Made by a program: the position numbers and the translations under genes. From assembly GCA_963714695.1 (NCBI GenBank), contig CAVQPQ010000003.1:616866-680865 (forward strand): a stretch of DNA of 64,000 nucleotides. Direction: 5' to 3'. A model generated the notes under the pieces. That model saw only the letters and a list, made by a program, of their open reading frames with translations. It was not told where the DNA came from and searched no databases. This document shows, one piece after another, positions 108 through 32,007 of this stretch. Position 1 is the stretch's first letter; the number at the start of each line of letters is the position of its first letter. The DNA is from an uncultured Verrucomicrobiae bacterium (GTDB lineage Bacteria > Verrucomicrobiota > Verrucomicrobiia > Limisphaerales > UBA11358).

Positions 108-128
108 GCTATGGGGTGTTACCCTACC
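108..128 (-). promoter_or_regulatory. Upstream motif copy 1 (GGTAGGGTAACACCCCATAGC on the minus strand)
   Basis: The plus strand reads gctatggggtgttaccctacc. It points leftward toward a possible edge-truncated minus-strand ORF with an ATG at 76. Confidence 0.5.
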
Positions 129-365
129 AGTGAACTTTACGAATCAATCCCGGCGTGGCGGCGACGCCCGTACCCGACCGGGAAATCAGTTGGAGTTCAC
201 ACTTCAGCGTGTCGGGCCGACGCGGAGGGAAACAAACTGAAGCTTGAACTCCAACCTACCCGGCTTGCGTTTCCAAACTGAAACCAAGGGTTTTCCCAGT
301 GGCGGCAAGGAACCCCCTAGTCGCGGCCAAACCTTACGCAGGGTAACAGTAATTATGAACATTAA
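108..365. repeat. 258-bp intergenic module, copy A (paralog of 4689-4946)
   Basis: It aligns colinearly with 4689-4946 at a constant offset of 4581, and most positions are identical. It contains a long hairpin (189-207 pairs with 237-255) and ends at an ATGAACATTA start. Confidence 0.85.
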
Positions 366-501
366 CCGGACACGAGGCAAAACCCTGGTTGGAGGCCGGA
401 GCGTAATTGCTCGCGGAACACAATCTCTCCCGGATTCACAGTTTTCATAACCGGACCTAAAACTCATTTTATCGTCAACCGCCGGAGAAATAATCAACAC
501 T

Positions 502-1590
502 TTGAATACTCCCAATCTTTTCTCTCCCGTTCGTCTGGGCGCGCTGGAAGCGCCCAATCGCATCGTGATGGCTCCGCTCACGCGGATGCGCGCGGGTCCG
601 GGCCGCGTGCCGACGCCGTTGATGGCGGAGTATTATGCCCAGCGGGCGACGGCGGGTTTGATCATCACAGAAGCCACGGCAATTTCCCAGCAAGGCACGG
701 GCTGCCCCAACTCGCCCGGAATCTACACCTACGAACAGATCGCCGGCTGGCAGCGGGTCACCGAGGCGGTGCATTGTGCCGGCGGCCGCATTTTTCTTCA
801 GCTCTGGCACATGGGCCGGATCTCTCATCCGAGCTTCCAACCGGACGGTGGATTGCCGGTCGCGCCCAGCGCCATTGCCCCGCGATCCGGCCAGGCGCTC
901 ACGGAGGACGGAAGGCAGCCTTATGTTACGCCGCGCGCTCTGAAGAAAGAAGAGTTGCCCGGGATTGTGGCGCAGTATGCCGCCGGGGCCAAACACGCCA
1001 AAATCGCCGGCTTCGACGGCGTGGAAATTCACAATGCCGACGGTTATCTGCTGGATCAGTTCCTCTGCGATGGCACGAACCATCGCACCGATTATTACGG
1101 CGGCCTCGTGCGGAACCGCGCCCGGCTCACACTGGAAGTAACCGTAGCCGTTGCCAAGGTATGGGGTGCCGACCGCGTGGGCCTCTGCTTCTCGCCGGGA
1201 GGTGTTTTCAACGACATGTACGATTCGAATCCGCTGGCGACGTTCAGTCATATGTTGCACGAGTTAAATCGCTTCAAACTTGCCTACGCGCACTTGATCA
1301 TGTCCACGGAAGGTGATTTTCGGCATGGCGCGGCGCCGATGTCGCTGGTGGCACTGCGGCACGAGTTTCAAGGGCCGTTGATTGTCGCCAGCGGCTTCAC
1401 TTGCGCGACGGCGACGCAGTGCTTGGAGGAGGGCTTGGCCGATGCCACAGCTTTTGGGCAATTGTTCATTGCGAATCCCGACTTGCCCGAACGTTTCCGG
1501 TTGAAGTCGCCGTTGAACCCGCCGGACGAAACGCCTTTTTATGGCGGAGTGGAAACGGGTTGTCCCGATTATCCGGCGACAGGAAGATGA
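502..1590 (+). CDS. Old Yellow Enzyme family NADH:flavin oxidoreductase (alkene / N-ethylmaleimide reductase-like)
   Basis: 362-aa ORF. The segments LFSPVRLGALEAPNRIVMAPLTRMRA, QLWHMGR and GFDGVEIHNADGYLLDQFL are typical of OYE TIM-barrel flavoenzymes. Confidence 0.9.
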   Translation: MNTPNLFSPVRLGALEAPNRIVMAPLTRMRAGPGRVPTPLMAEYYAQRATAGLIITEATAISQQGTGCPNSPGIYTYEQIAGWQRVTEAVHCAGGRIFLQLWHMGRISHPSFQPDGGLPVAPSAIAPRSGQALTEDGRQPYVTPRALKKEELPGIVAQYAAGAKHAKIAGFDGVEIHNADGYLLDQFLCDGTNHRTDYYGGLVRNRARLTLEVTVAVAKVWGADRVGLCFSPGGVFNDMYDSNPLATFSHMLHELNRFKLAYAHLIMSTEGDFRHGAAPMSLVALRHEFQGPLIVASGFTCATATQCLEEGLADATAFGQLFIANPDLPERFRLKSPLNPPDETPFYGGVETGCPDYPATGR

Positions 1591-1699
1591 AACCGGCTTC
1601 CATTACAAGGTGGCAGAAACCCATCCCTTTCTCATTCGAACCGACCGGTTCGAAATGCGGCCGCCGCGCGAAAGTTTTTTGATGCGTGGCGGAGACCAT

Positions 1700-1940
1700 G
1701 CAGATGTTGGATTTTGATTCGGGTGGACAGTCGTTTATCAACGGGTGGCTACTCTTTCCCCCCTGATCAGCGGCTGTCGCCCGAATCATAGCCAACGTAA
1801 TTTCTTCCCCGTGAACCCGGTCGAGGCGGCAAAGAGGTCGTCCAGAATCAGGAGTTGCGGCGACTGCAAGGAGTGTGCGGATGCGGGCGCCTTGCGTTGT
1901 TCGCCGTTGGACAGGGTGGCCAGCCGGCGGCGGTTGAAAA
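1700..1940 (-). pseudogene. ABC-transporter ATP-binding domain remnant (signature motif plus Walker B, frameshifted)
   Basis: Minus-strand translation gives LSNGEQRK...SPQLLILDD. It then continues in another frame as LDRVHGEEITLAMIRATAADQGGKSSHPL. There is no N-terminal Walker A region and no intact ORF. Confidence 0.35.
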
Positions 1941-2095
1941 CGGAAAGGAAAATGATGAAACTCAAAGCACCGTTTGGCCGGGAAACCCGCTTTGACCAGC
2001 CGATGTGAATTATAACCCGGACCCGGGGACAGCGGTCTCCGGTATCCGGAGCGGTTCGCCCAGCAGGCGTTGGGGCGCAATTCCAAAGCGGTGCA

Positions 2096-2524
2096 TCATG
2101 CCTGCTCGAAACACGCCGAAGTCACCGTGCCATCGCTGGATGATTGGGAGACTCCCGTTGACAATCTTGGCAATTCGTCGGCACATTTTTGTGACTCGAC
2201 CACAGGCAAATCATCCGCAGATAAATTGAAATTGAGCGAAGCAAACCAATGTTTTATCGGGTGTTCTTTGGCATAAACAATTCCGCATGGCGGGATCGGA
2301 AGTCCAATGAAGCGCCCAAGTTCAGCACAAATAAATTCGTTGGAAATGCAGTATTTTGACTTTTCATTATTTTTGGCCTTTGCCTTCAAAAGGCCATTAT
2401 AAGAGAGATGGTCGCCGTCATTGGCGTCTCTTGATTCAGCAATGGACACTATAGAAAAAAGTCCAGCCATAATGATTGACAGAGCTTTTATCATCGGAAA
2501 TGAAGCGTCAATCATGTTTTTCAT
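2096..2524 (-). CDS. Hypothetical protein in a locally AT-richer patch
   Basis: Internal ATG of the 2096-2665 ORF (MKNMIDASFPMIKAL...). Composition clearly differs from the flanks. No confident family assignment. Confidence 0.3.
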   Translation of the reverse strand: MKNMIDASFPMIKALSIIMAGLFSIVSIAESRDANDGDHLSYNGLLKAKAKNNEKSKYCISNEFICAELGRFIGLPIPPCGIVYAKEHPIKHWFASLNFNLSADDLPVVESQKCADELPRLSTGVSQSSSDGTVTSACFEQA

Positions 2525-2741
2525 GGAAAAACGGCATTTTCGGCCAGCGCGTTGCCAAGCCCTACCAAACCACAAAAAAGCGCAATCTGGCGCACCATGA
2601 CCTTTTATTGGCACTGCGGCACATAAGCTGCTATAGTATGGTTGAGTTGTGGTTGCAACAGGCAATCAGCGAACGATATGTAATCATAATAACCCGCCTG
2701 TTGCTTCGTTCACGCCGCAGCGAAAGAAAGAAGAGCAATAA

Positions 2742-3116: not shown

Positions 3117-3149
3117 TCAACAGCCGAGTTGGTTCATAGGCTCGAGGCG

Positions 3150-3168
3150 AAGGCTTCGGGCCTTTTTT
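3150..3168 (+). terminator. Possible rho-independent terminator after the pilin-like gene
   Basis: AAGGC-ttcgg-GCCTT stem-loop followed by a T run, 34 nt after the stop codon. The stem is short. Confidence 0.4.
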
Positions 3169-3504: not shown

Positions 3505-4083
3505 CTAGCCCGCAGCCAGTTTCCCCTGCGGAAGCAATCCGGCCTGCATGGCAAAACGCACCAGGCCCGGAACATCATGAATGTTCAGGCAGTTCATCAA
3601 CTTCATGCGATGGTATTCGACGGTCTTGGGGCTGACTTTCAGAATCACGCCGATCTGTTTGGTGTTCTGGCCTTCGGCGATGAGTTGGAGAATCTCGCGC
3701 TGACGCCCCGAAAGCTCATCGAGCGGGCTTTTCCGGTCAGCAATCGCTTGCAGGGGAATTTTTTTGAGGAACCGGGTGGAAATTTCCGGGTTCAGGTGAA
3801 TTTCTTTGTTGACCACACGTTGCAGGATCGTCTCGACCTGCTCCGTCCGCGTCTCGGCCTGCTCGGTTCGGATTTCGGCTTGTTCCGTCCGCGTCTTGGC
3901 CAATTCGGTCCGGGTTTCGGCCTGCTCCGTGCGTGTCTCCGCCGATTCTGCCCGGGTCTTGGCCTGCTCCGTGCGTGTTTCGGCCTGCTCCGTCCGGGCT
4001 TCGGCCTGCTCCGTCCGGGCCTCCGCCCGCTTGATTCGCGTCTGATCGCCGGTCACACCCGCATGTTGATCGTTTTTCCCCAT
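3505..4083 (-). CDS. LuxR/FixJ-type HTH regulator with an N-terminal TEQAE(A/T)R heptad-repeat region in place of a receiver domain
   Basis: The C-terminus LSGRQREILQLIAEGQNTKQIGVILKVSPKTVEYHRMKLMNCL is a LuxR-type HTH. Residues ~20-89 are ~10 consecutive 7-aa repeats. Confidence 0.8.
   Translation of the reverse strand: MGKNDQHAGVTGDQTRIKRAEARTEQAEARTEQAETRTEQAKTRAESAETRTEQAETRTELAKTRTEQAEIRTEQAETRTEQVETILQRVVNKEIHLNPEISTRFLKKIPLQAIADRKSPLDELSGRQREILQLIAEGQNTKQIGVILKVSPKTVEYHRMKLMNCLNIHDVPGLVRFAMQAGLLPQGKLAAG
3817..4030. repeat. 21-bp tandem repeat (~10 units) encoding the heptad array
   Basis: Plus-strand units resemble gtccgggcttcggcctgctcc and follow one another back to back. Confidence 0.85.
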
Positions 4084-4619: not shown

Positions 4620-4688
4620 AGATTGCCTCCAATTTGGGTGAGTGTTTTATTATTCATGCTGAAAGCCTAAGCCGAAGAATGGGCGGGC

Positions 4689-4709
4689 GCTATGGGGTGT
4701 TACCCTACC
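4689..4709 (-). promoter_or_regulatory. Upstream motif copy 2
   Basis: gctatggggtgttaccctacc on the plus strand, 70 nt upstream of the minus-strand start at 4619. Confidence 0.6.
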
Positions 4710-4946
4710 AGTGGATTTTGCGAATTCAATCCCGGCGTGACCGCGACGCCCGCGTGCAACCGGAAAATCAGTTGGAGTTCACGCTTCAGCGTGCCGGCCG
4801 GCGAAAAGGGAAACAAGCTGAAGCTTGATCTCCAACCTCTCCGGCTCACGCTGCCAAACTGAGACCAAGGGTTTTCCCAGTGGCGGCAAGGAACACCCTA
4901 GTCGCAGCCAGACCTCGCAGAGGGTAACGGTAATTATGAACATTAT
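4689..4946. repeat. 258-bp intergenic module, copy B
   Basis: See copy A. The hairpin arms lie at 4770-4788 and 4818-4836. The module ends at the ATG (4936) of the FN3 gene. Confidence 0.85.
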
Positions 4947-6102: not shown

Positions 6103-6129
6103 GGCGTGGGGGAAACGCCACCCGGCGCC
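6103..6129 (+). promoter_or_regulatory. Upstream motif copy 3 (degenerate)
   Basis: ggcgtgggggaaacgccacccggcgcc. The surrounding ~90 nt (6040-6130) align with the reverse complement of 8331-8420 upstream of the other orphan receiver operon. Confidence 0.45.
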
Positions 6130-6163
6130 CGCAAGTTTTGCCGGTTTATTATTTATCTTTCTA

Positions 6164-7280: not shown

Positions 7281-7461
7281 TTTGATGGAACCGAATTAGA
7301 CGCGGATTCCCGTGAAAGTCAATTGATAGAATGACCAGCCGGTGCAGAATCACCTCTCGCATTGGAACAGGTTTGGAATTCTCATCACAGGTGGCAAGGG
7401 ATTTATATTGGGCACGACCCGAAATTATAAACTGAAACATTTTTCGGGTGCTATCCGGCGT

Positions 7462-7590
7462 TCACTCCATTTTCCGACAATCGGAGGCCGGACCAGGCGG
7501 GGCGGAGGCCGCGATGGCGCAGGCGCAGAGGATGAATGCGGCGCAGCCAAAGGAGACGGCCATAAACGAGAAGATGAGGAAAAGCATCAT
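7462..7590 (-). CDS. Possible 42-aa membrane peptide downstream of the receiver gene
   Basis: MMLFLIFSFMAVSFGCAAFILCACAIAA... with a GGAG 8 nt upstream. It starts 22 nt after the upstream stop codon. It is short and unsupported by homology. Confidence 0.25.
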   Translation of the reverse strand: MMLFLIFSFMAVSFGCAAFILCACAIAASAPPGPASDCRKME

Positions 7591-8304: not shown

Positions 8305-8335
8305 GGTATAATTGTAAACGGGAAGCCGCGCGGGC

Positions 8336-8358
8336 GCTATGGGGTGTTTACCCCATAT
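8336..8358 (-). promoter_or_regulatory. Upstream motif copy 4 (palindromic form)
   Basis: gctatggggtgtttaccccatat contains the inverted repeat TATGGGGT-gttt-ACCCCATA. Confidence 0.6.
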
Positions 8359-13254: not shown

Positions 13255-13330
13255 TCGACGGAATCAGCCCGCCCGGCGGGTTCCCGGAAAGCAGTCCTGA
13301 GAATGTGGCGGCTGATCATACCCGGTTGTT

Positions 13331-17902: not shown

Positions 17903-17927
17903 CGATATGGGGTGTTTACCCCATGCC
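17903..17927 (-). promoter_or_regulatory. Upstream motif copy 5 (palindromic form)
   Basis: cgatatggggtgtttaccccatgcc, 81 nt upstream of the start at 17822. Confidence 0.6.
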
Positions 17928-20678: not shown

Positions 20679-20703
20679 CGATATGGGGTGTTTACCCCAT
20701 GCC
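20679..20703 (-). promoter_or_regulatory. Upstream motif copy 6 (palindromic form)
   Basis: Same sequence as copy 5, displaced by 2776 bp, 81 nt upstream of the start at 20598. Confidence 0.6.
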
Positions 20704-21205: not shown

Positions 21206-21883
21206 CTAAACAATGGTCAACTGGACGCTGTTCTCAATGATTCCCTCGCTGATGGCGTAGCGGGTGAGTCCGGCGGTGTCGTGGACGTCGAGCTTGCTCA
21301 TGACCTTCTCGCGATGTTTCTCGACGGTCTTGATGCTGATGCCCAATTCCGCGGCCGTTTCCTTGTTGGCCTTGCCTTCGGCAATCAGTTGGAGCACCTC
21401 CATCTCGCGCGAGGTCAACCGGGCGGCTTTCTGGTTGAGCCGTCCCGCGCGGTCAGGCGATTTCGGGTTGAGACGATCAAGACGTTTGGCAACCATGGGG
21501 CCGTAAAACGTTTTTCCTTTTTGGACTTCCCGGATCGCATCGCACACCACGTGAGAAGAGTTTTGTTTGAGCAGAAATCCCATGGCGCCGGACTCGGTTG
21601 CGTTTTTGACATACGCGTCATCACTGTGCGCGGAAAGAATGACCACTTTGGTGGCAGGGACGGCTTTGAGCGCCTGGCGGGTGGCTTCCAAACCATTGAG
21701 CAGCGGCATGGCGATATCCATCAGCACCACGGCGGGACGAAGTTTTTTGACCAGGGCGACCGCCTGACGGCCGTCTTGCGCCTCGCCGACCACGTGAATA
21801 TCTTTTTCCAGCTCCAGCATCTTGCGAAATCCCTCGCGCACAATCGTATGGTCTTCTGCCAGCAGGACGGTGATTTTTTTCAT
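21206..21883 (-). CDS. NarL/FixJ-family response regulator (REC plus LuxR HTH)
   Basis: ITVLLAEDHTIVREG...VVLMDIAMPLLNG and LTSREMEVLQLIAEGKANKETAAELGISIKTVEKHR. Confidence 0.9.
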   Translation of the reverse strand: MKKITVLLAEDHTIVREGFRKMLELEKDIHVVGEAQDGRQAVALVKKLRPAVVLMDIAMPLLNGLEATRQALKAVPATKVVILSAHSDDAYVKNATESGAMGFLLKQNSSHVVCDAIREVQKGKTFYGPMVAKRLDRLNPKSPDRAGRLNQKAARLTSREMEVLQLIAEGKANKETAAELGISIKTVEKHREKVMSKLDVHDTAGLTRYAISEGIIENSVQLTIV

Positions 21884-22023
21884 AGAAATTCAGGGATTAA
21901 CTGAGATTAAGATTAAGCATACGATTAAGATTACAATTTGGGGGGAATACCTGCGGTTTCTTAATCTTAATCCTGCTCATAATCGTAATCCAAATCAGTT
22001 CTGTTTGGTTCCAGCTGGCTCCA

Positions 22024-23178
22024 TCAGCGGGTTTTAGCCCCCTCCGCGCGGCCATTGCCGGGCGGAATTTGCGCAAAAATGGTCGTGCCTTTGCCGGGTG
22101 CGGATTCGACAGTGAATTTGCCGCCGACCATCTCCAATCGTTCCCTCATCCCGAGCAGCCCGAGGCGTTTGCCGCCATTGGCGTGCAAGGTGCGTTCCAC
22201 GTTAAAGGATTTGCCGTCGTCTTTGATTTTCAGGCCAATGCCACCCGGCAGTTTCTGGATGGTCACTTCCACCCGGCTGGCCCGGGCATGGCGGGCCACA
22301 TTGGTGAGCGCCTCCTGGGCGACGCGAAAGAGCACCGTTCGTTTGGCCGCGTCCAATCGTTCCACCGCCGCGAAGGCCGTCAAATGAACACGCACGCCCG
22401 TCCGCGCGGTAAAGCTTTTCATGAACGAATGCAGGGCGGGAATCAACCCCAGGTCGTCCAGCACCGTCGGGCGCAGTTCCCGGGCGAACCGGTGCACGAT
22501 GTCCACCGATTTTTCCACGAGCCGCTGGGTGCTGGAGATTTTTTTCTGGAGGCCCTTGTGGTTGAGCGTGGATTCGTTTTTCAAGGAAGCCAGCCGGATA
22601 TTGATGCCTGTCAAGGTCTGGGCGATTTGATCATGCAGTTCGCGGCTGATCATCTTGCGCTCTTCCTCCTGGGCCGACAGCAGCTGGCGGGACAGCAGCC
22701 GCAATTGTTCCTGCATGTGCCGCGACTGCTCCAGCAACTGGCTGTAGTGTTGCTCGCTCTTTCGGAGGGACTCCTCCACCAATTTGCGCTGGAGAATCTC
22801 CCGTTGCAAGTGCCGGTTTGAGGCGATCAGATCCAAGCTGCGCTGGATGAGCGACTGATTTAGTTGTACCAGTTGGTCATTGTCCTCCCGGGCCGCGCGA
22901 TGCGTTTTCTCGATGGGAGTAATGGCCTCGGCAAAAAAAGTCCCCGCCCGCCGGATCATCCGTTTCCGGGTGCCGGGCGAATGGCCCGGCAATATCAGGG
23001 TGGTCAGCGCCTGCTCATGGAACCGGGCGAGATCCAGCGTCTCCAAACCCAGGTCCATGGCCCGGCGTCCCAGCCCCTGCGCCGTCCCGCGCGGCGGGTT
23101 CGCCTGTGGACCTTCTTTCAGGTGTTTGCGCAGCGCCGCGACATATCGTTGCGCCAGCCCGTTTAGTTTACGTGCCAT
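22024..23178 (-). CDS. Sensor histidine kinase, HisKA_3 (NarX/DegS-like) plus HATPase_c
   Basis: H-box ISRELHDQIAQTL. ATPase KDDGKSF...GLLGMRERLEMVGG. The start at 23178 is chosen by alignment with the upstream paralog. A GTG at 23220 is an alternative. Confidence 0.85.
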   Translation of the reverse strand: MARKLNGLAQRYVAALRKHLKEGPQANPPRGTAQGLGRRAMDLGLETLDLARFHEQALTTLILPGHSPGTRKRMIRRAGTFFAEAITPIEKTHRAAREDNDQLVQLNQSLIQRSLDLIASNRHLQREILQRKLVEESLRKSEQHYSQLLEQSRHMQEQLRLLSRQLLSAQEEERKMISRELHDQIAQTLTGINIRLASLKNESTLNHKGLQKKISSTQRLVEKSVDIVHRFARELRPTVLDDLGLIPALHSFMKSFTARTGVRVHLTAFAAVERLDAAKRTVLFRVAQEALTNVARHARASRVEVTIQKLPGGIGLKIKDDGKSFNVERTLHANGGKRLGLLGMRERLEMVGGKFTVESAPGKGTTIFAQIPPGNGRAEGAKTR

Positions 23179-23191
23179 TTTAGGTGCTGCT

Positions 23192-23905
23192 TTACGTCCT
23201 ATTGTGAATTCCGAATTCACGAGCGAACCGTTTTATGCTTTTTACTGATTTATCCACCAGTCGCTGCGTGCTGACAATCTCTTTCTTGAGGCCGCTGGCG
23301 TTGATCGCGGCCTCCTTTTTCAACGTCAACAGGCGGACATTGATGCCCAGCAACGTCTGGGCAATCTCATCATGCAGGTCGCGGCTGATTTTCTTTCGTT
23401 TGTCCTCCTGCGCCGACAGAATCTGGTGCGTCAGGCGCTGCAAATGTTTTTGCAGGTGAAGTGATTCTTTCAACAGTTTCCGGGAGTGTTCCCCGCTTTT
23501 CTTGAGGGCCTGCTCCACGGACTTGCGCTGAGCGACGTCCTGCTTCAGGGAACGATGGGAGGCCACCAGGTCCGCCGTGCGCCGGCCCAGCGTCCGGTTC
23601 AGCCGGCTCAAGCGAACGTTGGCCTCGAGTGCGGCGCAATGCGTTTCTTCAATCGGAGTGATTGCCTCGGTAAAAAAAATCTCCGCCCGCCTGATGATCC
23701 CATCTTTGCTGCGGGAGGCTTCCAGCGTGGCGAGCGCGTCCTCGTGAATCCTGGCCACGTCCAATGTTTCCAGATTGAGATCCGCGGCCTGGCGTCCCAG
23801 CGCCAGCGCCGTCCCGCACGGCGGTTTCGCCCGCGAACCTTGCTTCAGGTGTTTTCGCAAGGCTGTCGCATATCGTTGCGACAACGCGGTCAACTTTCGT
23901 TTCAT
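23192..23905 (-). CDS. Kinase paralog retaining the N-terminal domain and HisKA_3 H-box but lacking HATPase_c
   Basis: Colinear with 22024-23178 up to ...VKSIKRFARE, including ISRDLHDEIAQTL. It then diverges (FGIHNRT) and stops 13 nt before the next start codon. Confidence 0.6.
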   Translation of the reverse strand: MKRKLTALSQRYATALRKHLKQGSRAKPPCGTALALGRQAADLNLETLDVARIHEDALATLEASRSKDGIIRRAEIFFTEAITPIEETHCAALEANVRLSRLNRTLGRRTADLVASHRSLKQDVAQRKSVEQALKKSGEHSRKLLKESLHLQKHLQRLTHQILSAQEDKRKKISRDLHDEIAQTLLGINVRLLTLKKEAAINASGLKKEIVSTQRLVDKSVKSIKRFAREFGIHNRT

Positions 23906-24004: not shown

Positions 24005-24028
24005 TATATGGGGTGAACACCCCATAGC
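24005..24028 (+). promoter_or_regulatory. Upstream motif copy 7 (most symmetric: TATGGGGTG-aa-CACCCCATA)
   Basis: Lies in a divergent intergenic region, 84 nt upstream of the plus-strand start at 24112 and 100 nt upstream of the minus-strand start at 23905. Confidence 0.6.
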
Positions 24029-24111
24029 AAATGGCCGGGCTGGCGCGTAACCTGCCCTGCCAACAAATGGAAAACCGGAATGCCGACACGTAGCGCAATG
24101 CCTCAACCAGG

Positions 24112-24650: not shown

Positions 24651-27021
24651 ATGGTCATGCCGCTTGCTCCACCCCTTGCTGCGCCTGCCGCGGTTGCTGC
24701 GGCCAGCGATTCGCCTGACGGTCTCACGAGCGATGAGGCCCGCCGCCGGTTGGACCAGTTCGGTCCCAACTCCATGCCCGATACGTCCTCGCATCCGGCG
24801 CGAAGGGCGATTGAAAAACTGTGGGCGCCCATCCCCTGGATGTTGGAAGCGGCGATCGTGCTGGAGTTGGTGCTCGGCAAGTGCGTTGAAGCCGGGATTA
24901 TCGCGGTGCTTTTGTTGTTCAACGCCGCGCTTGGATTTTTTCAGGAGGGGCATGCCCAAGCAACGCTCGCCGCCCTGAAAAAACGGCTGGCGATGACCGC
25001 CTCGGTCCGTCGCGACGGCGCGTGGAAGAATCTCCCGGCCGCCGGCCTGGCGCCGGGGGACATCGTGAAGCTGTCACTCGGTGGCGTCGTCGCTGCGGAC
25101 GTGAAGCTGATCGAGGGAAACGTCCTGCTCGATCAATCCATGCTCACCGGTGAATCAATCGGCGCCGAAGCGGGCCCGGAGTTCCAAACTTTTGCCGGGG
25201 CATTGGTGCGCCGAGGCGAGGCGGTCGCCAGAGTTACGGCGACGGGAATCCACACGAAGTTCGGTCGCACGGCCGAGTTGGTCCGCACGGCCCATGTCGT
25301 CAGTTCGCAGCAAAAGGCCGTGTTGCGCGTGGTGCGCAATCTCGCGGTGTTCAACGGCTTCCTGATAATCATTCTCGTGGCGTATGCCCTGGGCCATGCG
25401 ATGCCGGGGCGCGAGATCATCCCTTTGGTTTTAACGGCGATTCTGGCATCCATTCCCGTTGCGCTGCCGGCCACGTTCACGCTGGCAGGCGCGCTGGGGG
25501 CGCGTGCATTGGCGCGTCAGGGCGTCTTGCCCACACGCCTCTCGGCCGTGGACGAAGCGGCGTCAATTGATGTGCTATGCGCCGACAAGACCGGGACGCT
25601 CACTCGCAATCAGCTTTCAGTAACCTTGGTTCGCCCGATGCCGGGCTTTGACGAGTCGCACGTTTTGACGATGGCGGCGCTCGCCAGCTCCGACGGTGGA
25701 CAGGATCCCGTAGATGGTGCCATTCGTTCCGCCGCCGCGCGGAAAGTCGCTGTCAATCCGCCCAAACTCCTTCACTTCGTGCCGTTCGATCCCGCGACGA
25801 AAATGTCCGAGGCGACGGCGACTGATCCAAGCCTTGGAACCGTGCGCATCATCAAGGGTGCCTTCACCGCCGTCGGCCCGCTCGCGGCTCCTTCACCCAT
25901 CGCGACGGCGGCAGCGAACGAACTGGAAACAAAAGGTTTTCGCGTGCTGGCGGTCGTGGCGGGACCGCCTGCGGCGATGCAGTTGCTGGGATTGATCGCG
26001 CTTGGCGACCCGGCCCGCGAAGATTCCGCCGCCCTGGTCACGGAACTGAAATCACTCGGCATCCGCACGGTGATGGTGACCGGCGATGCTCCAGCAACGG
26101 CGGCAATTGTAGCTCATGCCGTCGGTCTGGATGGCGCGGTGTGTCCACCCGGACCGTTACCAGAACAAAGTCCGTCCTGAAGATTTCGTCGTGTTTGCCG
26201 GCGTCCTGCCCGAAGACAAATTCAAACTGGTGAAAGCGTTTCAACAAACGGGCAACATCGTCGGCATGTGCGGCGACGGCGCCAACGACGCGCCCGCGCT
26301 GCGCCAGGCGCAAATGGGAATCGCGGTTTCGACGGCAACCGATGTCGCCAAGTCCGCCGCCGGCATGGTGCTCATCAATCCCGGACTTGCCGGCATTGTT
26401 TCCGCCGTCAAGGAAGGACGCATCACGTTCCAGCGCATTCTGACGTACACGCTGAATTCCGTGACCAAGAAGATAGTGCAGGTGCTGTTCCTGGGCGTCG
26501 GCCTCATTATGACCGGGCACGCGATTCTCACTCCCATGCTGATGATCATCGTGATGATGGCGGGTGATTTGCTCGGCATGTCGTTGACCACCGACAATGT
26601 CCGGCCTTCCTTGCTGCCAAATAATTGGCGCATCGGCGCCCTGACCATCGCGGGCATTTTCATGGGTGTTTCCGAACTCGCGTTCTGCGGCGGCGCGCTC
26701 GCCTTCGGACATTTCCGCATGGGCCTGGGCATCGCCACTTTGCAGACGCTGGCGTTCTTCGTCCTGGTTTGCGGAAACCAGGCAACCATGTATGCGGTGC
26801 GCGCCCGCGGGCGAATTTGGTCATCGCCCCGTCCCAGCCGCTGGCTCGTCTTGTCTTCCGTCACCGATCTGGGGATCGCCTTGACACTGGCCGGCTGCGG
26901 CTGGCTCATGCTGCCGCTGCCGTTCTGGGTGTTGGGCAGCGTGTTAGTCGGGGCTTTTGCCTTCGCCTTCGTCTTGGATTTGGCGAAGGTTTCAGTATTT
27001 AGTCGCTTAAAGATCACATAA
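24651..27021 (+). pseudogene. P-type ATPase (type III H+-ATPase-like) split by a +1 frame change near 26140-26175
   Basis: First frame: TGES, CADKTGTLT, MVTGD. Second frame: FAGVLPEDKF, GMCGDGANDAPAL and the C-terminal TM helices. The two ORFs overlap at 26116-26180. Confidence 0.8.
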
Positions 27022-27183
27022 AGCTGAATCAACTTGCGGGCGGGCGCCTTCGATGATGCCCGGTAGCAGCCCGTTAAAAAAGTAGGAGCCGACGTGAGGA
27101 GGCTTTGAACCAACGCCCATGGCCGGAGGAATTTGAGCCTCGTTACCTCGGCTCCTGCAAGATAACGAATTTTTGAACGGGCC

Positions 27184-27204
27184 GGTAGGGTTACACCCCA
27201 TAGC
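27184..27204 (+). promoter_or_regulatory. Upstream motif copy 8
   Basis: ggtagggttacaccccatagc followed by gcccgcaag, as in copy 3. Confidence 0.6.
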
Positions 27205-27224
27205 GCCCGCAAGATGGTCAGGCA

Positions 27225-27407
27225 ATGCTCTGGGCCGTGGAAAATAAAACCTGGCTCACCGAAGTGGAAGTTGCGGCTTGCATTATGGCGGTGGCAATGA
27301 CCGCGTTCACTTTAATGGTTGCTCATGCCCTGTGGAAGAGCCTAGCCGGCGACAACGATAAGAACACTTTTGCCGTCAGGTTGGCGGCGAACCAAAACAA
27401 AAAATAA
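27225..27407 (+). CDS. Possible small membrane protein
   Basis: 60-aa ORF with one hydrophobic helix, 21 nt downstream of motif copy 8 and upstream of the CsbD-family gene. No homology support. Confidence 0.3.
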   Translation: MLWAVENKTWLTEVEVAACIMAVAMTAFTLMVAHALWKSLAGDNDKNTFAVRLAANQNKK

Positions 27408-27428
27408 CAAATCACGAACTATTATATT

Positions 27429-27635
27429 ATGACCACACTCGAAATCAAAGGCGACTGGAACATCACCAAGGGCAAGCTGAAACAAAAATGGGCCAAGCTT
27501 ACTGATAATGATCTCCGTTACACCGAAGGCCGGCAGGAAGAACTGGTTGGCCGGATTCAAAAGCTCACCGGCGAAACCCGTGAAGTGGTCGAAAACGCGA
27601 TCAAGGAATCTTGCTCCCCCTGTTGCTGCAAATAG
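27429..27635 (+). CDS. CsbD family general stress protein
   Basis: EIKGDWNITKGKLKQKWAKLTDNDLRYTEGRQEELVGRIQKLTGETRE matches the CsbD pattern. Confidence 0.85.
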   Translation: MTTLEIKGDWNITKGKLKQKWAKLTDNDLRYTEGRQEELVGRIQKLTGETREVVENAIKESCSPCCCK

Positions 27636-28070
27636 GCTGTCAATGCGCGGGCGGCAGGCAGGGCGGCGCCGCCGCGCCGGCGGGCATGATGGCGCCTGCG
27701 AACCACGCTTTGAAATCCAGCCGCTCATTGACTCCGGGCGGCTGGCGCATTTTTCGGGGAAAATTCTCATGCGTCGGAGCGCCAGTCGCCTCGTTTCTCC
27801 GGCCAACAACACGGCCTTCGCGCGGGCGTTCCGACCGGTGAAAATAAAACCAGGCTTTGATTTCCGGACAGCATCCGCTATAATTGTTTCATCGCTGGCA
27901 TTTGAAGTGGGGCAGCAGACACACCCGGATGATGGGCTGCCAGCGTCTCCAAGTTGCCCGTCGTCCCCTTCTGAGCGCCGCGGTGGCCGGCGTTTTGTCT
28001 GTCGCCACCTTCTTTTCCAAAACCATTCCCGTGCTTGTCGGCGATGCCGGCTTGGTGCTAACGTCTCGCC

Positions 28071-28259
28071 ATGCCGACGCTGGAACTCAAGCCAACGCAC
28101 AAAGTTGTCACCGCCTATTACGACAACTTGGCGAAATTCGCCAAACTCGGCATCAAGCACAAAACCGCCGTCCGCTCCGCGTTTCAGGAATTGCTGGAAC
28201 ACTGCGCCCGCCAGTTCGATTGGAAACTCGTTCCCGAATACGCCATCAAACGCAAAGGC
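28071..28259 (+). pseudogene. N-terminal remnant resembling the start of large restriction-modification methylase/helicase fusion proteins
   Basis: MPTLELKPTHKVVTAYYDNLAKFAKLGIKHKTAVRSAFQELLEHCARQFDWKLVPEY is recalled by eye from such enzymes. After ~63 aa the ORF runs into simple repeats. Confidence 0.35.
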
Positions 28260-28314
28260 CTGCAGGAATCGCCGACGCTGCGAGCAGCCCGGTCACCAGC
28301 CAGGAAACCGCCCA

Positions 28315-28374
28315 AATCAAACCGGATCAAACTGAATCAAACCAAATCAAACCAAATCAAACCGAATGAAAACA
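28315..28374. repeat. Six tandem 10-bp units (AATCAAACCN)
   Basis: aatcaaaccg gatcaaactg aatcaaacca aatcaaacca aatcaaaccg aatgaaaaca, with an exact 10-nt period. Confidence 0.9.
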
Positions 28375-28437
28375 CCGCCAGCCAGCCAGCGGGAAGGACA
28401 TGTGATCAGTCCCCGGCTGAACCGGGCCTCGAACCGT

Positions 28438-28459
28438 GGTAGGGTTACACCCCATAAGC
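28438..28459 (+). promoter_or_regulatory. Upstream motif copy 9
   Basis: ggtagggttacaccccataagc, 87 nt upstream of the dodecin start. Confidence 0.6.
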
Positions 28460-28545
28460 AAAGGATCGGCCCGGCCCGTAATTTGTGAACTGAAAAATTG
28501 AATGGCGGAATCCGTTAACGGCAACCAAACACAAAAAAACCGAAT

Positions 28546-28755
28546 ATGAAAGACCCGGTCTATAAACTCATCGAACTCACCGGCACCTCCACCACTTCCA
28601 TTGAAGATGCGGTGGACAAGGCCATCAAACGCGCGCACAAAACCATAAAGAACCTGCGGTGGTTCCAAGTGATCGAAACGCGCGGCAGCATCGAAAAAGG
28701 GAAGGTTCATCACTGGCAGGTGACCATCAAAATCGGCTTCACCGTGAATGAATGA
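28546..28755 (+). CDS. Dodecin family protein
   Basis: VYKLIELTGTSTTSIEDAVDKAIKRAHKTIKNLRWFQVIETRGSIEKGKVHHWQVTIKIGF parallels bacterial dodecins. Confidence 0.85.
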   Translation: MKDPVYKLIELTGTSTTSIEDAVDKAIKRAHKTIKNLRWFQVIETRGSIEKGKVHHWQVTIKIGFTVNE

Positions 28756-28792
28756 TCGGGCAGAAATGCGCGAAACCAAGTGAAGAACAATC

Positions 28793-28990
28793 ATGCCTCA
28801 AGGCGATAAATCCAGCTACACCGACAAACAGAAACGGCAGGCGGCACACATCGAAGCCGGCTACGGGAAAAAAGGTGTCAGCGTGAAAACCGCAGAAGCT
28901 CGCGCTTGGGCCACCGTGAACCAACTCACCGGCGGCGGAAAAAAGAGCGGCTCTGGCAGGAAGAATCACAAGATGATGCCAGTAGTATGA
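28793..28990 (+). CDS. Small basic conserved protein (stress-associated, unnamed family)
   Basis: MPQGDKSSYTDKQKRQAAHIEAGYGKKGVSVKTAEARAWATVNQ. Its stop overlaps the grpE start as ATGA. Confidence 0.55.
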   Translation: MPQGDKSSYTDKQKRQAAHIEAGYGKKGVSVKTAEARAWATVNQLTGGGKKSGSGRKNHKMMPVV

Positions 28991-29535
28991 ACCCTGAATT
29001 TCCCAATCCTCCGGCCACTGAACTGGAGCCAAACGCCACTCTGGTCGAGACCACGGCCACGGAGTCGGATGCGCTCCTGAAGGATCTCGCCGAACAAAAA
29101 GATTTGCATTTGCGCCTGGCCGCCGACTTTGAGAATTTCAAGCGGCGCAGCCGGCGGGAAAGCGAGACCCGCGCGGCCGCGCAAAAGGAATCTTTCATCG
29201 TTGAACTGTTGCCGGTCATTGACAACCTCGAACGGGCTTTGGCCTCCGGCGCATCGCGGGACTCCGCGCTGTTTCATCAAGGGGTGGATATGACGTTGCA
29301 ACAATTGCAACAATTGCTCCGCCAGCACGGCGTCGAGAGTGAGGAAATCGTTGGCCAGCCGTTCGACCCGCACCGGCATGAAGCGCTTTCGCGAGGCCAT
29401 GATCCGGCTCAACCCGACCACGCCATTCTCTCGGTGCTCCAGCGCGGCTATCATCGGGGTGAGAAGATGGTTCGACCGGCCAAAGTGGTGGTGAACGACC
29501 TGACGCCTTCCAAGCCCGCCCGCCATGCCCGTTGA
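28987..29535 (+). CDS. grpE: Nucleotide exchange factor GrpE
   Basis: [17 protein letters not shown]...[12 protein letters not shown]...FDPHRHEAL...[16 protein letters not shown]. Confidence 0.9.
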
Positions 29536-30043
29536 ATTTAAAGACTATTACCGGGTCCTCGGAGTGTCTCCGAAGGCATCGGACGAGGAAATCAAGAAGG
29601 CTTTCCGGACGCTTGCCCGGAAGTATCATCCCGATGTCGCCAAAGACAAAAAGATGGCGGAGGAAAAATTCAAGGAAGTCAACGAGGCCAATGAAGTCTT
29701 GAGCCATCCGGAGAGTCGCAGAAAATATGACCAGTTGGGCGCGAATTGGAAAACCGGCGCGGAATCGCGTCCCCAGCCGGACTGGGCTGGAGGCCGGTCC
29801 GCCGGTTGGGGAGGGCGGGTTCAAGAAGACGAATTCCAATTCGAGGGCACGGGTTTCAGTGATTTTTTTGAACAGTTTTTTGGCGGTCGCGCCGGCCGGT
29901 CTCGCGGCGGTTCGCCGTTTGAACACTTTGGCGCTGCGAACGGCAGCGATGAACCCGAGGCGGCGCTCCGAGGCCGGGATATTCAAGGGGACATTCTTAT
30001 CACTCTCGATGAAGTGGTTAAGCCCTCTAAACAGAGTGTGTGA
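29525..30043 (+). CDS. J-domain protein (CbpA/DnaJ-like) lacking the C-terminal substrate-binding domains
   Basis: [32 protein letters not shown] plus a G/F-rich region. It ends shortly after [16 protein letters not shown], where CTD I normally begins. Confidence 0.8.
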
Positions 30044-30143
30044 GGGCCGGAACAGTAAAGCTTCCTCGTTCGCCTGCGCCTTTTCGTTCCACAATTTAGC
30101 GCCAGCCGGATCAGTTTTTCCGGGAGCGTCTCCAATGAAGCAC

Positions 30144-30164
30144 GGTAGGGTTACACCCCATAGC
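30144..30164 (+). promoter_or_regulatory. Upstream motif copy 10
   Basis: ggtagggttacaccccatagc, 79 nt upstream of the start at 30243. Confidence 0.6.
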
Positions 30165-30242
30165 AAAAAACCGCCCGCCAGCGTAGTTTCGCCAAATTGG
30201 CAGGCACAACCGCAAACCAAACACGCAACGAAAATCATAATT

Positions 30243-30689
30243 ATGAATAATAAAACATGGGTCATCACCTTCCTTTCCATCGCCGCTTTTGCGGTCGGGT
30301 GCGACAAACAGCAAACCACTTCCCAGCAGATCGAGACGGTCAAAACCGAAACCAAACAAGCCGCGCAGGACATAAAGGATTACACCTTCGCGCAAAAGGA
30401 CGAATTTGTTAAAACCATGCAGGGTCAGTTGGACGCTCTTAACAAGGACTTGGACCAGATCTCCGCCAAAATCGAAAGCTCCAGCGACGCGGTCAAGGCT
30501 GAGGCCAAACCCAAACTCCAGGCATTGCGCGACCAAGCGGCCCAATTGAACAAACAACTGGCCGATGCCCAGAACGCCACCGAGTCCACTTGGGACAGCG
30601 TCAAAGCCGGCTGCTCGAAGGCTTACGATGCGACGAAGGACGGTTTCAACCAGGCCCGCCAGTGGGTGAGTGATAAAATCGCGCCTTGA
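30243..30689 (+). CDS. Helical lipoprotein (apolipoprotein / LEA-like composition)
   Basis: Lipobox FLSIAAFAVGC. The remainder is K/Q/A/D-rich and predicted helical. Confidence 0.65.
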   Translation: MNNKTWVITFLSIAAFAVGCDKQQTTSQQIETVKTETKQAAQDIKDYTFAQKDEFVKTMQGQLDALNKDLDQISAKIESSSDAVKAEAKPKLQALRDQAAQLNKQLADAQNATESTWDSVKAGCSKAYDATKDGFNQARQWVSDKIAP

Positions 30690-30760
30690 GGTGAGAGGGG
30701 AAACGTTGTGAATAAAACAGCAAGCCAAAAAACATAAACATCAAAAATGAAAGAAACGAT

Positions 30761-31111
30761 ATGAAAAAAACATCTGTAAACACGGGCCAACCCCTCAAGG
30801 TGTTGACGTTGATCCTCTGCCTCGGCGCGATGCCAGTGCTCCTGGGCGTGACCGGCTGTACCACCGGCAGCCGCTACGAGCAAAGCTCGGGTGAACGAAT
30901 TGACGACCATAACACTTCTTCCCGCGTCCGGGCCGCGCTGGCAGACGACTCGCAATACAAGTACGACGGCGTCAACGTGGAAACGTTCAAGGGTGTGGTT
31001 CAGTTGAGCGGCTTTGTCAACACGAGGGACCAGAAAAACCGGGCCGGGGATATTGCCAGGCAAGTCAGTGGCGTGCATGATGTCGAAAACAACATCACCG
31101 TCAAAGAGTGA
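30761..31111 (+). CDS. BON domain lipoprotein (OsmY-like)
   Basis: Lipobox LLGVTGC. BON segment VNVETFKGVVQLSGFVNTRDQKNRAGDIARQVSGVHDVENNITV. Confidence 0.85.
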   Translation: MKKTSVNTGQPLKVLTLILCLGAMPVLLGVTGCTTGSRYEQSSGERIDDHNTSSRVRAALADDSQYKYDGVNVETFKGVVQLSGFVNTRDQKNRAGDIARQVSGVHDVENNITVKE

Positions 31112-31256
31112 TCGAATCGAGAAAGTTGCATTCGCAACACGCCGACAGTGGAATCCCCGCTGTCGGCGCGTTGACAGCGGGTGGAAACTAAGCCGGAATG
31201 AACTGCCCGAGGAGGTTCGCCGGTTGCTCAATTGCGAGTTGGATTATAATGGTTTC

Positions 31257-31277
31257 GGTAGGGTAACACCCCATAGC
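31257..31277 (+). promoter_or_regulatory. Upstream motif copy 11
   Basis: ggtagggtaacaccccatagc, 74 nt upstream of the start at 31351. Confidence 0.6.
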
Positions 31278-31350
31278 GCACGCGCTGCTTCTTGATTTAG
31301 TGTCAGCCGGTCAGGCAACCAACCACGCCTGCCCCAAATAAAGGAATTAC

Positions 31351-31872
31351 ATGAAAACCAAACTCATTCTGCTCGCCATCCGCAGTTCTCTGGCGCTGGC
31401 CGCGCCCGCATTGCTGGCGCAAGATACCAACACCAACGGCACCAACATCCTCACCCAAACCTGGAAATACCAAAAAGCGTTTGAAAACGACCGGTCGTTG
31501 GGCGAACGATCCCTTCTTCCTCCCGGGCTTAAGGAAAAGTTGAAACTCACCGACGACCAGAGAACCGATCTGAAGCCAATCGAGGCTGACTTTGCCAAAA
31601 CCTGCGAGGAATACCAGACTGCCAACCAACCCCGGATTGACGCCGCCGAGGAGGCGAACCGGCAGGCGCGCGCAGCGAAAGACACGGCACAAATAGAGGC
31701 AGCGCGCAAACAGTTGCAACAGGTCTGGGCCGGTCTCCGCCCATACCGGGTGGCCGCCGTCAATCAAATCAGGCCTCTGCTGACGCCGGATCAACTCGCG
31801 ATTTTGGACGATCCGAAGAACCGGTGGCGCGAAAATCATGGTCAGGAAGCGAATGATCCGTCTGCGAATTGA
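31351..31872 (+). CDS. Periplasmic LTXXQ-motif protein (Spy/CpxP-like)
   Basis: Signal peptide plus LKLTDDQRTDLKPI and LLTPDQLAILDD motifs. Confidence 0.65.
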   Translation: MKTKLILLAIRSSLALAAPALLAQDTNTNGTNILTQTWKYQKAFENDRSLGERSLLPPGLKEKLKLTDDQRTDLKPIEADFAKTCEEYQTANQPRIDAAEEANRQARAAKDTAQIEAARKQLQQVWAGLRPYRVAAVNQIRPLLTPDQLAILDDPKNRWRENHGQEANDPSAN

Positions 31873-31986
31873 ATCATGACGGCGATGCCGGAAAAGAAGC
31901 CCTTGAAAAGTCTTCATTTGCCGGGAGATTCTGCAAACTGAGGTCGGGCTGAATCAGTCTTCGCCGAACCATTGCCCAAAATACAC

Positions 31987-32007
31987 GGTAGGGTTACACC
32001 CCATAGC
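31987..32007 (+). promoter_or_regulatory. Upstream motif copy 12
   Basis: ggtagggttacaccccatagc, 79 nt upstream of the start at 32086. Confidence 0.6.

Follow-up and report, generated by a model that had tools for sequence, protein, structure and literature searches.

The stretch of DNA analysed here, referred to throughout as the window, is 64,000 nt long (contig CAVQPQ010000003.1 of assembly GCA_963714695.1, from an uncultured Verrucomicrobiae bacterium). It is identical to contigs of the Verrucomicrobiota metagenome-assembled genome (MAG) GCA_049686535.1 and of European Nucleotide Archive assemblies, and its nearest named relatives are Limisphaerales MAGs. The first 32 kb form an island of stress and signalling genes, within which a short sequence of about 21 bp, here called the box, recurs upstream of genes for CsbD and a 56-aa protein, dodecin with a 65-aa protein, GrpE and DnaJ, a helical lipoprotein and a BON protein, an LTXXQ protein, a BON protein with DUF5670, a small membrane peptide, two PAS kinases, orphan receivers, a membrane protein with a P-type ATPase, and an operon of HisKA_3 proteins and a response regulator. 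All 12 copies lie in this half. The second 32 kb of the window carry GMP synthase, riboflavin genes, LptE, BamD, spermine-synthase-like paralogs and transposases, and no box was found among these housekeeping genes. Coordinates are those of the whole window, and L-numbers (L006, L119 and so on) denote loci in other assemblies.

The box and its copies in the window

The initial annotation had described 12 copies of the element, and the same number was recovered: seven copies of form 1, the 21-mer GGTAGGGTWACACCCCATAGC (two mismatches in the copy at 28438), four copies of a palindromic form 2, whose starts lie 2-3 nt from those first given, and one decayed copy. A further weak candidate, of uncertain membership in the regulon, is included in the following list. 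The -10 elements and transcription start sites (TSSs) given for each box are predictions that are explained in the next section; ORF stands for open reading frame.

108..128, minus strand: form 1 box GGTAGGGTAACACCCCATAGC within the duplicated segment 92-364; weak -10-like TTTCCT at 88-83; ATG at 76, probably of a leaderless ORF running off the window start
4689..4709, minus strand: form 1 box; putative -10 TAGGCT at 4669-4664; predicted TSS 4657, the A of a 15-codon ORF; then a THIVI_2564 membrane peptide (4619-4422) and a GerE-only regulator (4083-3505)
6106..6124, plus strand: decayed form 2 box GTGGGGGAAACGCCACCCG; putative -10 TATTAT at 6147-6152; orphan receiver gene from 6163
7450..7471, minus strand: weak candidate box AATGGAGTGAACGCCGGATAGC; TATAAT 22 nt downstream (7429-7424); ahead of a MarC gene
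8336..8357, minus strand: form 2 box TATGGGGTAAACACCCCATAGC; putative -10 TACAAT at 8316-8311; ATG 8304 coincides with the predicted TSS (leaderless) and opens the gene of a 63-aa protein, followed by a receiver gene (8116-7613)
17904..17925, minus strand: form 2 box; putative -10 TATTAT at 17884-17879; predicted TSS ~17872; PAS histidine kinase (17822-16182)
20680..20701, minus strand: form 2 box, duplicate of the 17904 box; putative -10 TATTAT at 20660-20655; predicted TSS ~20648; PAS histidine kinase (20598-18649)
24005..24028 (core 24007-24026), both strands: perfect 8-4-8 palindrome TATGGGGTGAACACCCCATA between divergent operons; on the plus side putative -10 TAACCT at 24048-24053 and predicted TSS ~24060, then a 155-aa membrane protein and a P-type ATPase; on the minus side GATAGT at 23985-23980 and predicted TSS ~23973, then the HisKA_3 kinase/response regulator operon
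27184..27204, plus strand: form 1 box; -10-like AATGCT at 27224-27229; GTG 27237, at the predicted TSS, opens the gene of the 56-aa protein, followed by CsbD (27429-27635)
28438..28458, plus strand: form 1 box ending ...ATAAG; putative -10 TAATTT at 28479-28484; predicted TSS ~28491; dodecin/65-aa/GrpE/DnaJ operon from 28546
30144..30164, plus strand: form 1 box; putative -10 TAGTTT at 30184-30189; predicted TSS ~30196; helical lipoprotein (30243) and BON protein
31257..31277, plus strand: form 1 box; putative -10 TAGTGT at 31298-31303; predicted TSS ~31310; LTXXQ protein (31351)
31987..32007, plus strand: form 1 box; putative -10 TACCGT at 32027-32032; predicted TSS ~32039; BON protein (32086), DUF5670 and small proteins

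Divided into its parts, form 1 reads GGTA-GGGT-WAC-ACCCCATAGC, and form 2 reads (C/T)AT-GGGGT-RAAC-ACCCCATA(G/T)C, or (C/T)ATGGGGT(A/G)AACACCCCATA(G/T)C when written continuously in the orientation of the gene. The right-hand part is common to the two forms, and the spacing of the left half differs between them by one base. The proximal half-site ACACCCCATAGC is invariant; the distal half-site, (T)GGGGT or TAGGGT, lies 4 or 3 bp away. Form 2, with cores starting at 8338, 17906, 20682 and 24007, is a perfect or near-perfect 8-4-8 palindrome, and in the alignment of form 2 sites the distal half is conserved to the same degree as the proximal half. On either side of the palindrome at 24007-24026, a -10-like hexamer lies 21 nt away. 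The form 1 21-mer did not occur in any of 100 dinucleotide-preserving shuffles. Orthologs of the receiver promoter that has the decayed box at 6106-6124 bear an intact form 2 box in related contigs, and the 56-aa product encoded after the box at 27184 is annotated by NCBI in L006.

Every copy is directed at the start of the neighbouring gene, as had been proposed. The proposed distance of 70-87 nt between the end of the motif and the start codon also held in eight of 11 copies (measured as 69-87 nt), and in the remaining three the start codon follows about 30-40 nt past the motif. The copies represent about ten independent occurrences, because two pairs arose by recent duplication (92-364 with 4673-4945, and the two PAS kinase genes). 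The first of these segmental duplications (92-364 versus 4673-4945 and 1938-2032 versus 5811-5905; 78-86% identity) brings along the box, the promoter and the divergent upstream region, and accounts for the near-identical flanks of the copies at 108 and 4689. The PAS histidine kinase genes at 16182-17822 and 18649-20598 are likewise recent duplicates together with their boxes, with 95-98% identity over 300-nt blocks.

The initial annotation had placed all copies between genes. Coding sequence is indeed avoided, with 26% of sites inside long stop-free frames compared with 72% of random positions, but two boxes overlap automatically annotated ORFs (8113-8421 and 4691-4861). These ORF calls look over-extended or spurious. 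A short, GC-rich inverted repeat in many copies could in principle be a dispersed repeat of the repetitive extragenic palindromic (REP) or miniature inverted-repeat transposable element (MITE) kind, or a structured RNA hairpin in 5' leaders, and form 2 could fold into an 8-bp hairpin. We regard this as barely plausible. Only about 21 bp are common to the copies, the flanks being unrelated except in the two recent segmental duplications, and both the orientation and the spacing to the -10 and to start codons are fixed; scatter without orientation bias, which had been named as the mark of a generic REP element, was not seen in the sites collected. As for an RNA, a search of Rfam gave no matches at the gathering threshold or at E <= 1, the 'stem' of form 1 is broken by a conserved A/C mismatch, so that sequence rather than pairing is kept, and the element lies upstream of the predicted transcript start. 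No tRNA genes were found.

Distribution and promoter geometry

The pattern GGGT-N1-2-ACACCCCATA was scanned against one genome per species (596 Gb) and gave at least 120 loci; the pattern specifies only 14 bases, and thousands of chance matches are expected in a collection of this size. Among the 120 loci listed, 64 belong to Verrucomicrobiota, Lentisphaerae/Victivallales or Planctomycetes, here grouped as the Planctomycetes-Verrucomicrobia-Chlamydiae (PVC) loci, and they span Opitutales, Limisphaerales/Pedosphaera, Verrucomicrobiales (with four Akkermansia contigs), Pirellulales and Sedimentisphaerales. The full 21/22-mer with at most two mismatches is present at 40 of the 64 PVC loci compared with three of the 56 others, again among the matches listed. 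Apart from these three, of which one is in a MAG labelled Acidobacteriaceae and two are on contigs of a single unclassified MAG, the non-PVC loci look like chance matches. The Acidobacteriaceae-labelled copy (L010 5075-5095) is an exact 21-mer, GGTAGGGTTACACCCCATAGC, that lacks TAnnnT at +21, and reflects either a mis-binned contig or an occurrence of the motif outside the PVC group. The conservation in related genomes that the initial annotation had proposed as a check is thus deep: 21-mer and spacing alike are found again in Verrucomicrobiota (Akkermansia among them), in Lentisphaerae and in Planctomycetes.

In these other PVC genomes the genes that follow the box encode OsmC (three cases), BON, DUF3300, DUF2934, ferritin/Dps, KaiC, DnaJ, GSP26-like pyridoxamine oxidase, RRM, PRC-barrel, YflT, nitroreductase and dodecin proteins. 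In three Planctomycetes MAGs (L030 480-1955, L034 and L067 3770-5260) the box also precedes an orthologous B12-binding radical SAM protein (DUF4070), and no such target was seen in Verrucomicrobiota. The motif strings had no match in an open-literature corpus of 8 million papers, where a 10-mer matched unrelated eukaryotic primers only, and no description of a general stress regulator of Verrucomicrobia or Planctomycetes was found there. This agrees with the original statement that the motif could not be matched to a described promoter or operator class. The element appears to be undescribed as an instance, while being of a mechanistically ordinary kind, a response-regulator box in a class II-like promoter.

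The distance from the box to a downstream hexamer is the second conserved feature. TAnnnT follows ...CCCCATA after 21 nt in 31 of 69 PVC sites and after 20-23 nt in 46 of 69; at offsets of 20-22 nt it is present in 41 of 69 PVC sites compared with three of 55 chance matches in other phyla. Within the window it lies at +21 in seven of 11 copies and at +21 or +22 in nine of 11, the other two having TTTCCT and AATGCT instead. An independent set of 119 sites has the same +21/+22 peak. Start codons are also placed non-randomly with respect to this hexamer. In ten of 61 sites the hexamer is followed, at exactly 6 nt, by an ATG that begins an ORF of 40 aa or more, and in 16 of 61 a start codon lies 5-8 nt past it; other offsets have 0-3 each against a background of about one per offset. 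A pile-up of ATG at this position is the signature of leaderless mRNAs, in which the first base is the A of the ATG, and therefore suggests that TAnnnT is the working -10 of these promoters. Leaderless mRNAs make up 10% of the mapped starts in Akkermansia, as determined by Cappable-seq (PMC4782308); no such motif is given in that paper. In the window, four promoters would be leaderless by this rule, their start codons (76, 4657, 8304 and 27237) coinciding with the predicted start or lying 1 nt from it, and the other promoters have predicted leaders of 40-70 nt. The typical distance of 70-87 nt from motif to start codon would thus be the sum of a 40-55 nt leader and the promoter. The lipoprotein gene at 30243, for example, has a predicted 47-nt leader in the window and a leaderless ortholog in L073.

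If numbered from these predicted starts, the hexamer occupies -12 to -7, ATA -36 to -34, the 21-mer about -52 to -32 and the form 2 palindrome -53 to -34, with the dyad centre at about -43 to -43.5. The bases at -35 to -30 would then be TAGCNN, and no sigma-70-like or TTGACA-like hexamer with 16-18 bp spacing was present at the five boxes scanned (27100-32200).

The initial annotation had read the motif differently, with a GGATTC or TTGAAT box as -35, TAAACA or TAACAC as -10 and CCCCATAGC as the discriminator. The upstream boxes do occur, in front of seven window copies, but their distance from CACCCC varies between 26 and 33 nt and they are not conserved elsewhere; the region upstream has a mild enrichment of AT-rich words only. 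The 58 form 1 sites and the 31 of form 2 show nothing conserved at constant distance on the upstream side of the motif, and the TAnnnT hexamer that probably serves as -10 is downstream, which argues against this arrangement. The same observations bear on any reading that puts the -10 inside the motif, whether as a sigma-32-like CCCCATNT with a TTGAA-like -35, as a SigB/SigF-like GGGTWA, or as TAACAC/TAAACA followed by CCCCATAGC. Such a reading would place 5' ends 5-9 nt past CCCCATAG, near 28465, 30171, 31284 and 32014. It can point to the textbook identity of CCCCAT with the core of the Escherichia coli sigma-32 -10 and of GGGTA with that of the SigB/SigF -10, to GrpE and DnaJ among the targets and to TTGAA- or TGAAC-like words upstream of some copies. 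Since TTGAA, TGAAC and GGATT are rare or at scattered distances in the site collection, and since the TAnnnT at 21 nt and the ATG pile-up would be left unexplained, we consider it very improbable. In particular, no CTTGAA-type -35 placed 13-15 bp before CCCCATNT, as in a sigma-32 promoter, emerged from the upstream positions, and neither did a GTTT -35 at a fixed distance, as in a SigB/SigF promoter (GTTT-N12-17-GGGTAT); the latter model would also leave the TAnnnT and the ATG peak unexplained.

The proposal that the element is strand-specific, is associated with promoters and marks out a regulon of genes for stress and signalling is supported. Within this regulon the two forms are distributed unevenly. 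In the window and the metagenome set, form 2 was found at 18 sites ahead of receivers and PAS kinases, where form 1 was not found, whereas ahead of effectors (HBM lipoprotein, BON, THIVI_2564 peptide and CsbD) there were 11 form 1 sites and one form 2 site; these counts include orthologous promoters and are not independent samples, and the partition is not obvious in more distant genomes. The -10 regions differ as well: that of form 1 tends to GGCG-TAGCGT, with G at the third position of the hexamer in 22 of 48 sites and TAGCGT itself in 11 of 48, and that of form 2 tends to TATnnT, with G at the third position in one of 24. We treat the existence of two promoter classes, defined by form and target, as a lead. 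The split could separate a high-affinity tier with basal expression (signalling) from a low-affinity, tightly-off tier (effectors), or it could reflect two paralogous regulators.

Candidate regulators and proposed mode of action

The minus-strand operon downstream of the perfect palindrome encodes the principal candidate for the protein that reads the box, and a second candidate lies downstream of the box at 4689:

21206..23905, minus strand: candidate regulator operon, two HisKA_3 proteins and a NarL/FixJ-type response regulator
23905-23192, minus strand: HisKA_3 protein without an ATPase domain
23178-22024, minus strand: HisKA_3 + HATPase kinase
21883-21206, minus strand: NarL/FixJ-type response regulator of 225 aa, receiver and GerE helix-turn-helix (HTH)
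3505..4083, minus strand: second candidate regulator, GerE-type HTH with N-terminal 7-residue repeats replacing the receiver

The association between the box and the operon extends to related genomes. In the window and in L119, L128 and L130, a box with GATAGT at +21 stands ahead of it, and L073 and L040 have the box at this place as well. When metagenome loci were anchored on the regulator, 16 of 24 had the whole core, some 112-117 nt ahead of the initial kinase gene, and six more kept the proximal half only (..AAGGTGTTCACCCCATATA); all 22 evaluable loci therefore have at least the proximal half, two of the 24 having been left out because their gene starts were mis-assigned. Boxes are also dense around the regulator gene, with 119 distinct sites (at most three mismatches) in 482 kb. 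The regulator itself is 76-92% identical over more than 120 clusters, the protein search and metagenome scan for its homologs having yielded close relatives only. In relatives it follows an RsbU_N-type kinase operon at 28 loci, and among the 12 loci where no N-terminus of this type was found upstream, a HisKA_3 kinase precedes the regulator in seven of the eight inspected, L193 being ambiguous. Among the more distant PVC loci, taken as 8-kb pieces, a regulator gene near the box was seen in L015 only. The solved structures nearest to the HTH domain are those of VraR, LiaR, EsrB and EL222, not DevR or NarL, and an assignment of the DNA-binding specificity by HTH homology was rejected for that reason.

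Both HisKA_3 proteins of the operon (23192-23905 and 22024-23178) have a common helical N-terminal domain of about 100 aa. The kinase N-termini match RsbU_N, the domain that binds RsbT in the sigma-B pathway of Bacillus, only below the Pfam threshold, and its presence there is a lead. The second candidate, the GerE protein at 3505-4083, has an HTH that matches a second NarL-type family, represented by L130 13402-14082, which is paired with a dCache-PAS-HisKA_3 kinase. Within its gene a 21-nt tandem repeat of at least nine copies (3809-4060) encodes an AETRTEQ-like 7-residue repeat.

On balance, we think it probable that the motif is a promoter-proximal activator box, most likely for the phosphorylated form of the NarL/FixJ regulator at 21206-21883. 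A dimeric activator, for which this regulator and its HisKA_3 kinases are the likeliest candidates, would bind the box with ACACCCCATAGC, the proximal half-site, as its anchor, and would recruit RNA polymerase carrying a housekeeping-type sigma factor. The transcript would start about 34 nt past the last A of CCCCATA and would be leaderless or have a leader of 40-70 nt, and the box ahead of the regulator's own operon would provide positive feedback. A dimeric transcription factor is the simplest reading because the distal half (-53 to -44) is conserved and is an exact mirror of the proximal half in form 2; being so far upstream, the distal half needs a contact other than region 4 of sigma. The initial annotation had offered a promoter and an operator for a dimeric regulator as equal possibilities, and on account of the palindrome and the conserved distal half the second is the better fit. 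Both activation, as opposed to repression, and the identity of the binding protein are inferred.

A different explanation is that an alternative sigma factor devoted to these promoters, equivalent in the PVC group to sigma-B, sigma-S or EcfG, uses the box as an extended -35 and reads CCCCATAGC, perhaps together with GGCG-TAGCGT as -10. Gene content of this kind is sigma-controlled in Firmicutes, Proteobacteria and Alphaproteobacteria according to textbook accounts. The strict spacing to the -10 would be expected, as would the invariance of the proximal half, which persists where the distal half decays, and the odd -10 of form 1 (with its G at the third position in 22 of 48 sites versus one of 24, and the preceding GGCG with ECF-like CGTA) has a ready explanation. 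An arrangement of the extracytoplasmic function (ECF) type, ATAGC-N17-CGTA, can even be written, with CGTA overlapping the form 1 -10; against it stand the missing AAC, the 21-bp length of the conserved block and the predicted start, which fits TAnnnT. Several features are difficult to reconcile with a sigma factor. The best-conserved bases, GGGT...ACACCCC at about -48 to -37, are upstream of the contacts of sigma region 4, and the 22 bp from CCCCAT to the -10 are more than the spacers known between -35 and -10. Form 2 is a true palindrome with its distal half under selection, and a single palindrome serves two divergent promoters. No sigma factor gene was present in the island or after any box examined, and T-A-nnn-T with a start 7 nt later is the signature of a housekeeping-type sigma. 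We therefore consider an alternative sigma factor unlikely.

Dyad symmetry and overlap with the promoter would equally be expected of a repressor operator that covers the -35 and is released upon induction, as for HrcA/CIRCE or DdrO/RDRM. Stress regulons under conserved palindromic operators are textbook examples, and conservation over very deep lineages is also a property of CIRCE. An activator is nonetheless preferred because the promoters have no -35 (at the five boxes scanned) and often a poor -10 (TAGCGT or TACCGT), and would probably be weak unaided, and because the spacing is precise to the base: operators need no single-base spacing, whereas 41 of 69 PVC sites have TAnnnT within one base of +21. 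No HrcA, XRE, MerR or similar gene is conserved beside the boxes. Repression in this form seems to us distinctly unlikely.

Returning to the activator box, a number of observations weigh against it or against the choice of regulator. Form 1, the commoner form, is an imperfect dyad with its distal half shifted by 1 bp, and several promoters of the regulator operon keep the proximal half alone, as would not normally be expected of a symmetric dimer. Relative to the -41.5 of classical class II promoters, the dyad centre (-43/-43.5) is displaced upstream by 1.5-2 bp, and the transcription starts on which this numbering depends are deduced from sequence statistics. In most studied phyla, general stress regulons are under alternative sigma factors. 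The assignment to this regulator is one of guilt by association, as many other signalling genes also bear the box; L073 has no regulator gene after its kinases, and L015 has no box in the regulator's own upstream region. Furthermore, the second GerE-type family lies after boxes too, and has a similar recognition helix, KTVExHR.

The uneven use of the two forms leads to a broader model, which we put forward as doubtful: a PVC-wide general stress response that runs through a two-component cascade, with no alternative sigma factor, and uses one 21-bp box in two 'dialects'. The palindromic form with 4-bp spacing and a good TATnnT -10 would control a signalling tier that consists of the receivers, the PAS kinases and the operon of the regulator, and the asymmetric form with 3-bp spacing and a poor, TAGCGT-type -10 would drive the effector tier, the two being read at different thresholds of phosphorylated regulator. 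Alternatively, there might be two paralogous NarL-type readers, the 225-aa regulator and the second family to which the GerE protein at 3505-4083 belongs. Input might come through the RsbU_N-like N-termini of the kinases from a partner-switching module.

To our knowledge, hardly any transcription factors of Verrucomicrobiota, Lentisphaerae and Planctomycetes have been characterized. If the activator box is real, it would be the first cis-regulatory code for stress genes in these phyla, and the box together with the 21-nt rule would predict the regulon and its transcription starts from sequence in any PVC genome or MAG. The prediction would extend to the gut bacterium Akkermansia muciniphila, for which start-site maps and genetics exist, and the promoters would offer a ready stress-inducible module for engineering PVC organisms. 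It would also mean that a general stress set (CsbD, BON, OsmC and Dps) is wired to a DosR-like two-component activator in another deep lineage.

Related systems and neighbouring features

The kinases of the mycobacterial regulator DevR (DosR), DevS and DosT, are of the HisKA_3 type, and the DevR consensus is TTSGGGACTWWAGTCCCSAA. DevR belongs to the NarL subfamily, binds a 20-bp palindromic box with the half-site GGGACT (G4G5G6A7C8T9) and is positively autoregulated; its proximal box is 33-34 nt from the start point (PMC3177182). The likeness to the present system extends over several levels. A NarL-family regulator and HisKA_3 kinases are found here too, the palindrome is likewise 20 bp long with a run of G at half-site positions 4-6 (TTSGGGACTWWAGTCCCSAA compared with TATGGGGTGAACACCCCATA), and its proximal edge, at -34 from the predicted start, compares with 33-34 nt for DevR. 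The box stands ahead of its own putative regulator's operon, as would suit a positively autoregulated system of the DevR kind, and the regulon is again one of stress survival, with a nitroreductase and a ferritin-like protein beside boxes. On the other hand, the half-site here is GGGGT(G) rather than GGGACT, there is one box per promoter whereas DevR requires at least two tandem boxes, and the half-sites have two discrete spacings. The phyla differ, the DNA-binding domain here is nearer to those of LiaR/VraR/EsrB and EL222, and binding is only predicted here.

Other promoter architectures share individual features. In class II promoters CRP/FNR is centred at -41.5, and NtcA sites follow the layout GTA-N8-TAC-N22-TAN3T. 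The present promoters resemble these in having a dyad box in place of the -35 at a fixed distance from TAnnnT, and box-N21-TAnnnT is close to the NtcA layout; they differ in having a longer, GC-rich box whose centre is shifted some 2 bp upstream (to -43.5), and the island has no Crp/Fnr-family gene. NarL binds 7-2-7 heptamer sites, TACYYMT-N2-AKRRGTA. We take the half-site ACCCCAT to resemble the NarL heptamer (TACCCAT/TACCCCT), in line with membership of the same regulator family, although the halves have the opposite polarity, G-rich before C-rich here and C-rich before G-rich in the 7-2-7 sites, and the spacing is 3-4 bp instead of 2.

In gene content the regulon overlaps with those of sigma-B, sigma-S and EcfG, sharing CsbD, BON/OsmY, OsmC, Dps/ferritin, GSP26-like, YflT, PRC-barrel and small membrane proteins, and with many PAS kinases and receivers in the circuit. 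The promoters recognized by these factors are GTTTAA-N12-14-GGGTAT for sigma-B, an extended -10 for sigma-S and GGAAC-N16-17-CGTT for EcfG. They are sigma-specific -35/-10 pairs, in contrast to the 21-bp dyad-like box before a housekeeping-type -10 that is found here. Stress modules with two-component instead of sigma outputs have been documented, for example the stressosome of Vibrio vulnificus (PMC9237108). The weak RsbU_N matches at the N-termini of the two HisKA_3 proteins recall such a module, but they are below the Pfam threshold and no RsbR/S/T genes were seen in the window.

Several further features of the window were recorded. The peptide MNNKT or VENKT recurs at the N-terminus of products encoded at or near predicted transcription starts (4657-4610, 30243 and 27237), namely the 15-codon ORF after the box at 4689, the lipoprotein and the 56-aa protein; this recurrence suggests that modules comprising a promoter and an N-terminus have been copied. 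The P-type ATPase after the palindrome is split into two overlapping ORFs (24651-26180 and 26116-27021). It is an intact ORF of 789 aa in the sister assemblies L004 and L006 and is also broken in L005 and L007, so that the split points either to a frameshift or pseudogene or to a fault in the assembly. Hybrid kinase/receiver genes, three paralogs in tandem, occupy 9218-14893. Between the two PAS kinases, a 171-aa protein (18095-18610) with no Pfam match has a C-terminal Cys-rich motif, LLPICANCKKIRDD...HGICPECF, that resembles a small zinc-binding module. A tandem array of four paralogs, each about 630-745 aa long and with a spermine/spermidine-synthase domain, lies at 35828-45285 in the window's second half; sister assemblies differ in the number and lengths of these copies. 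Near the window end, a DDE_3 (IS630-like) transposase is split into the ORFs 59239-59733 and 59730-60203, and is followed by an IS1595-family transposase at 60279-61271.

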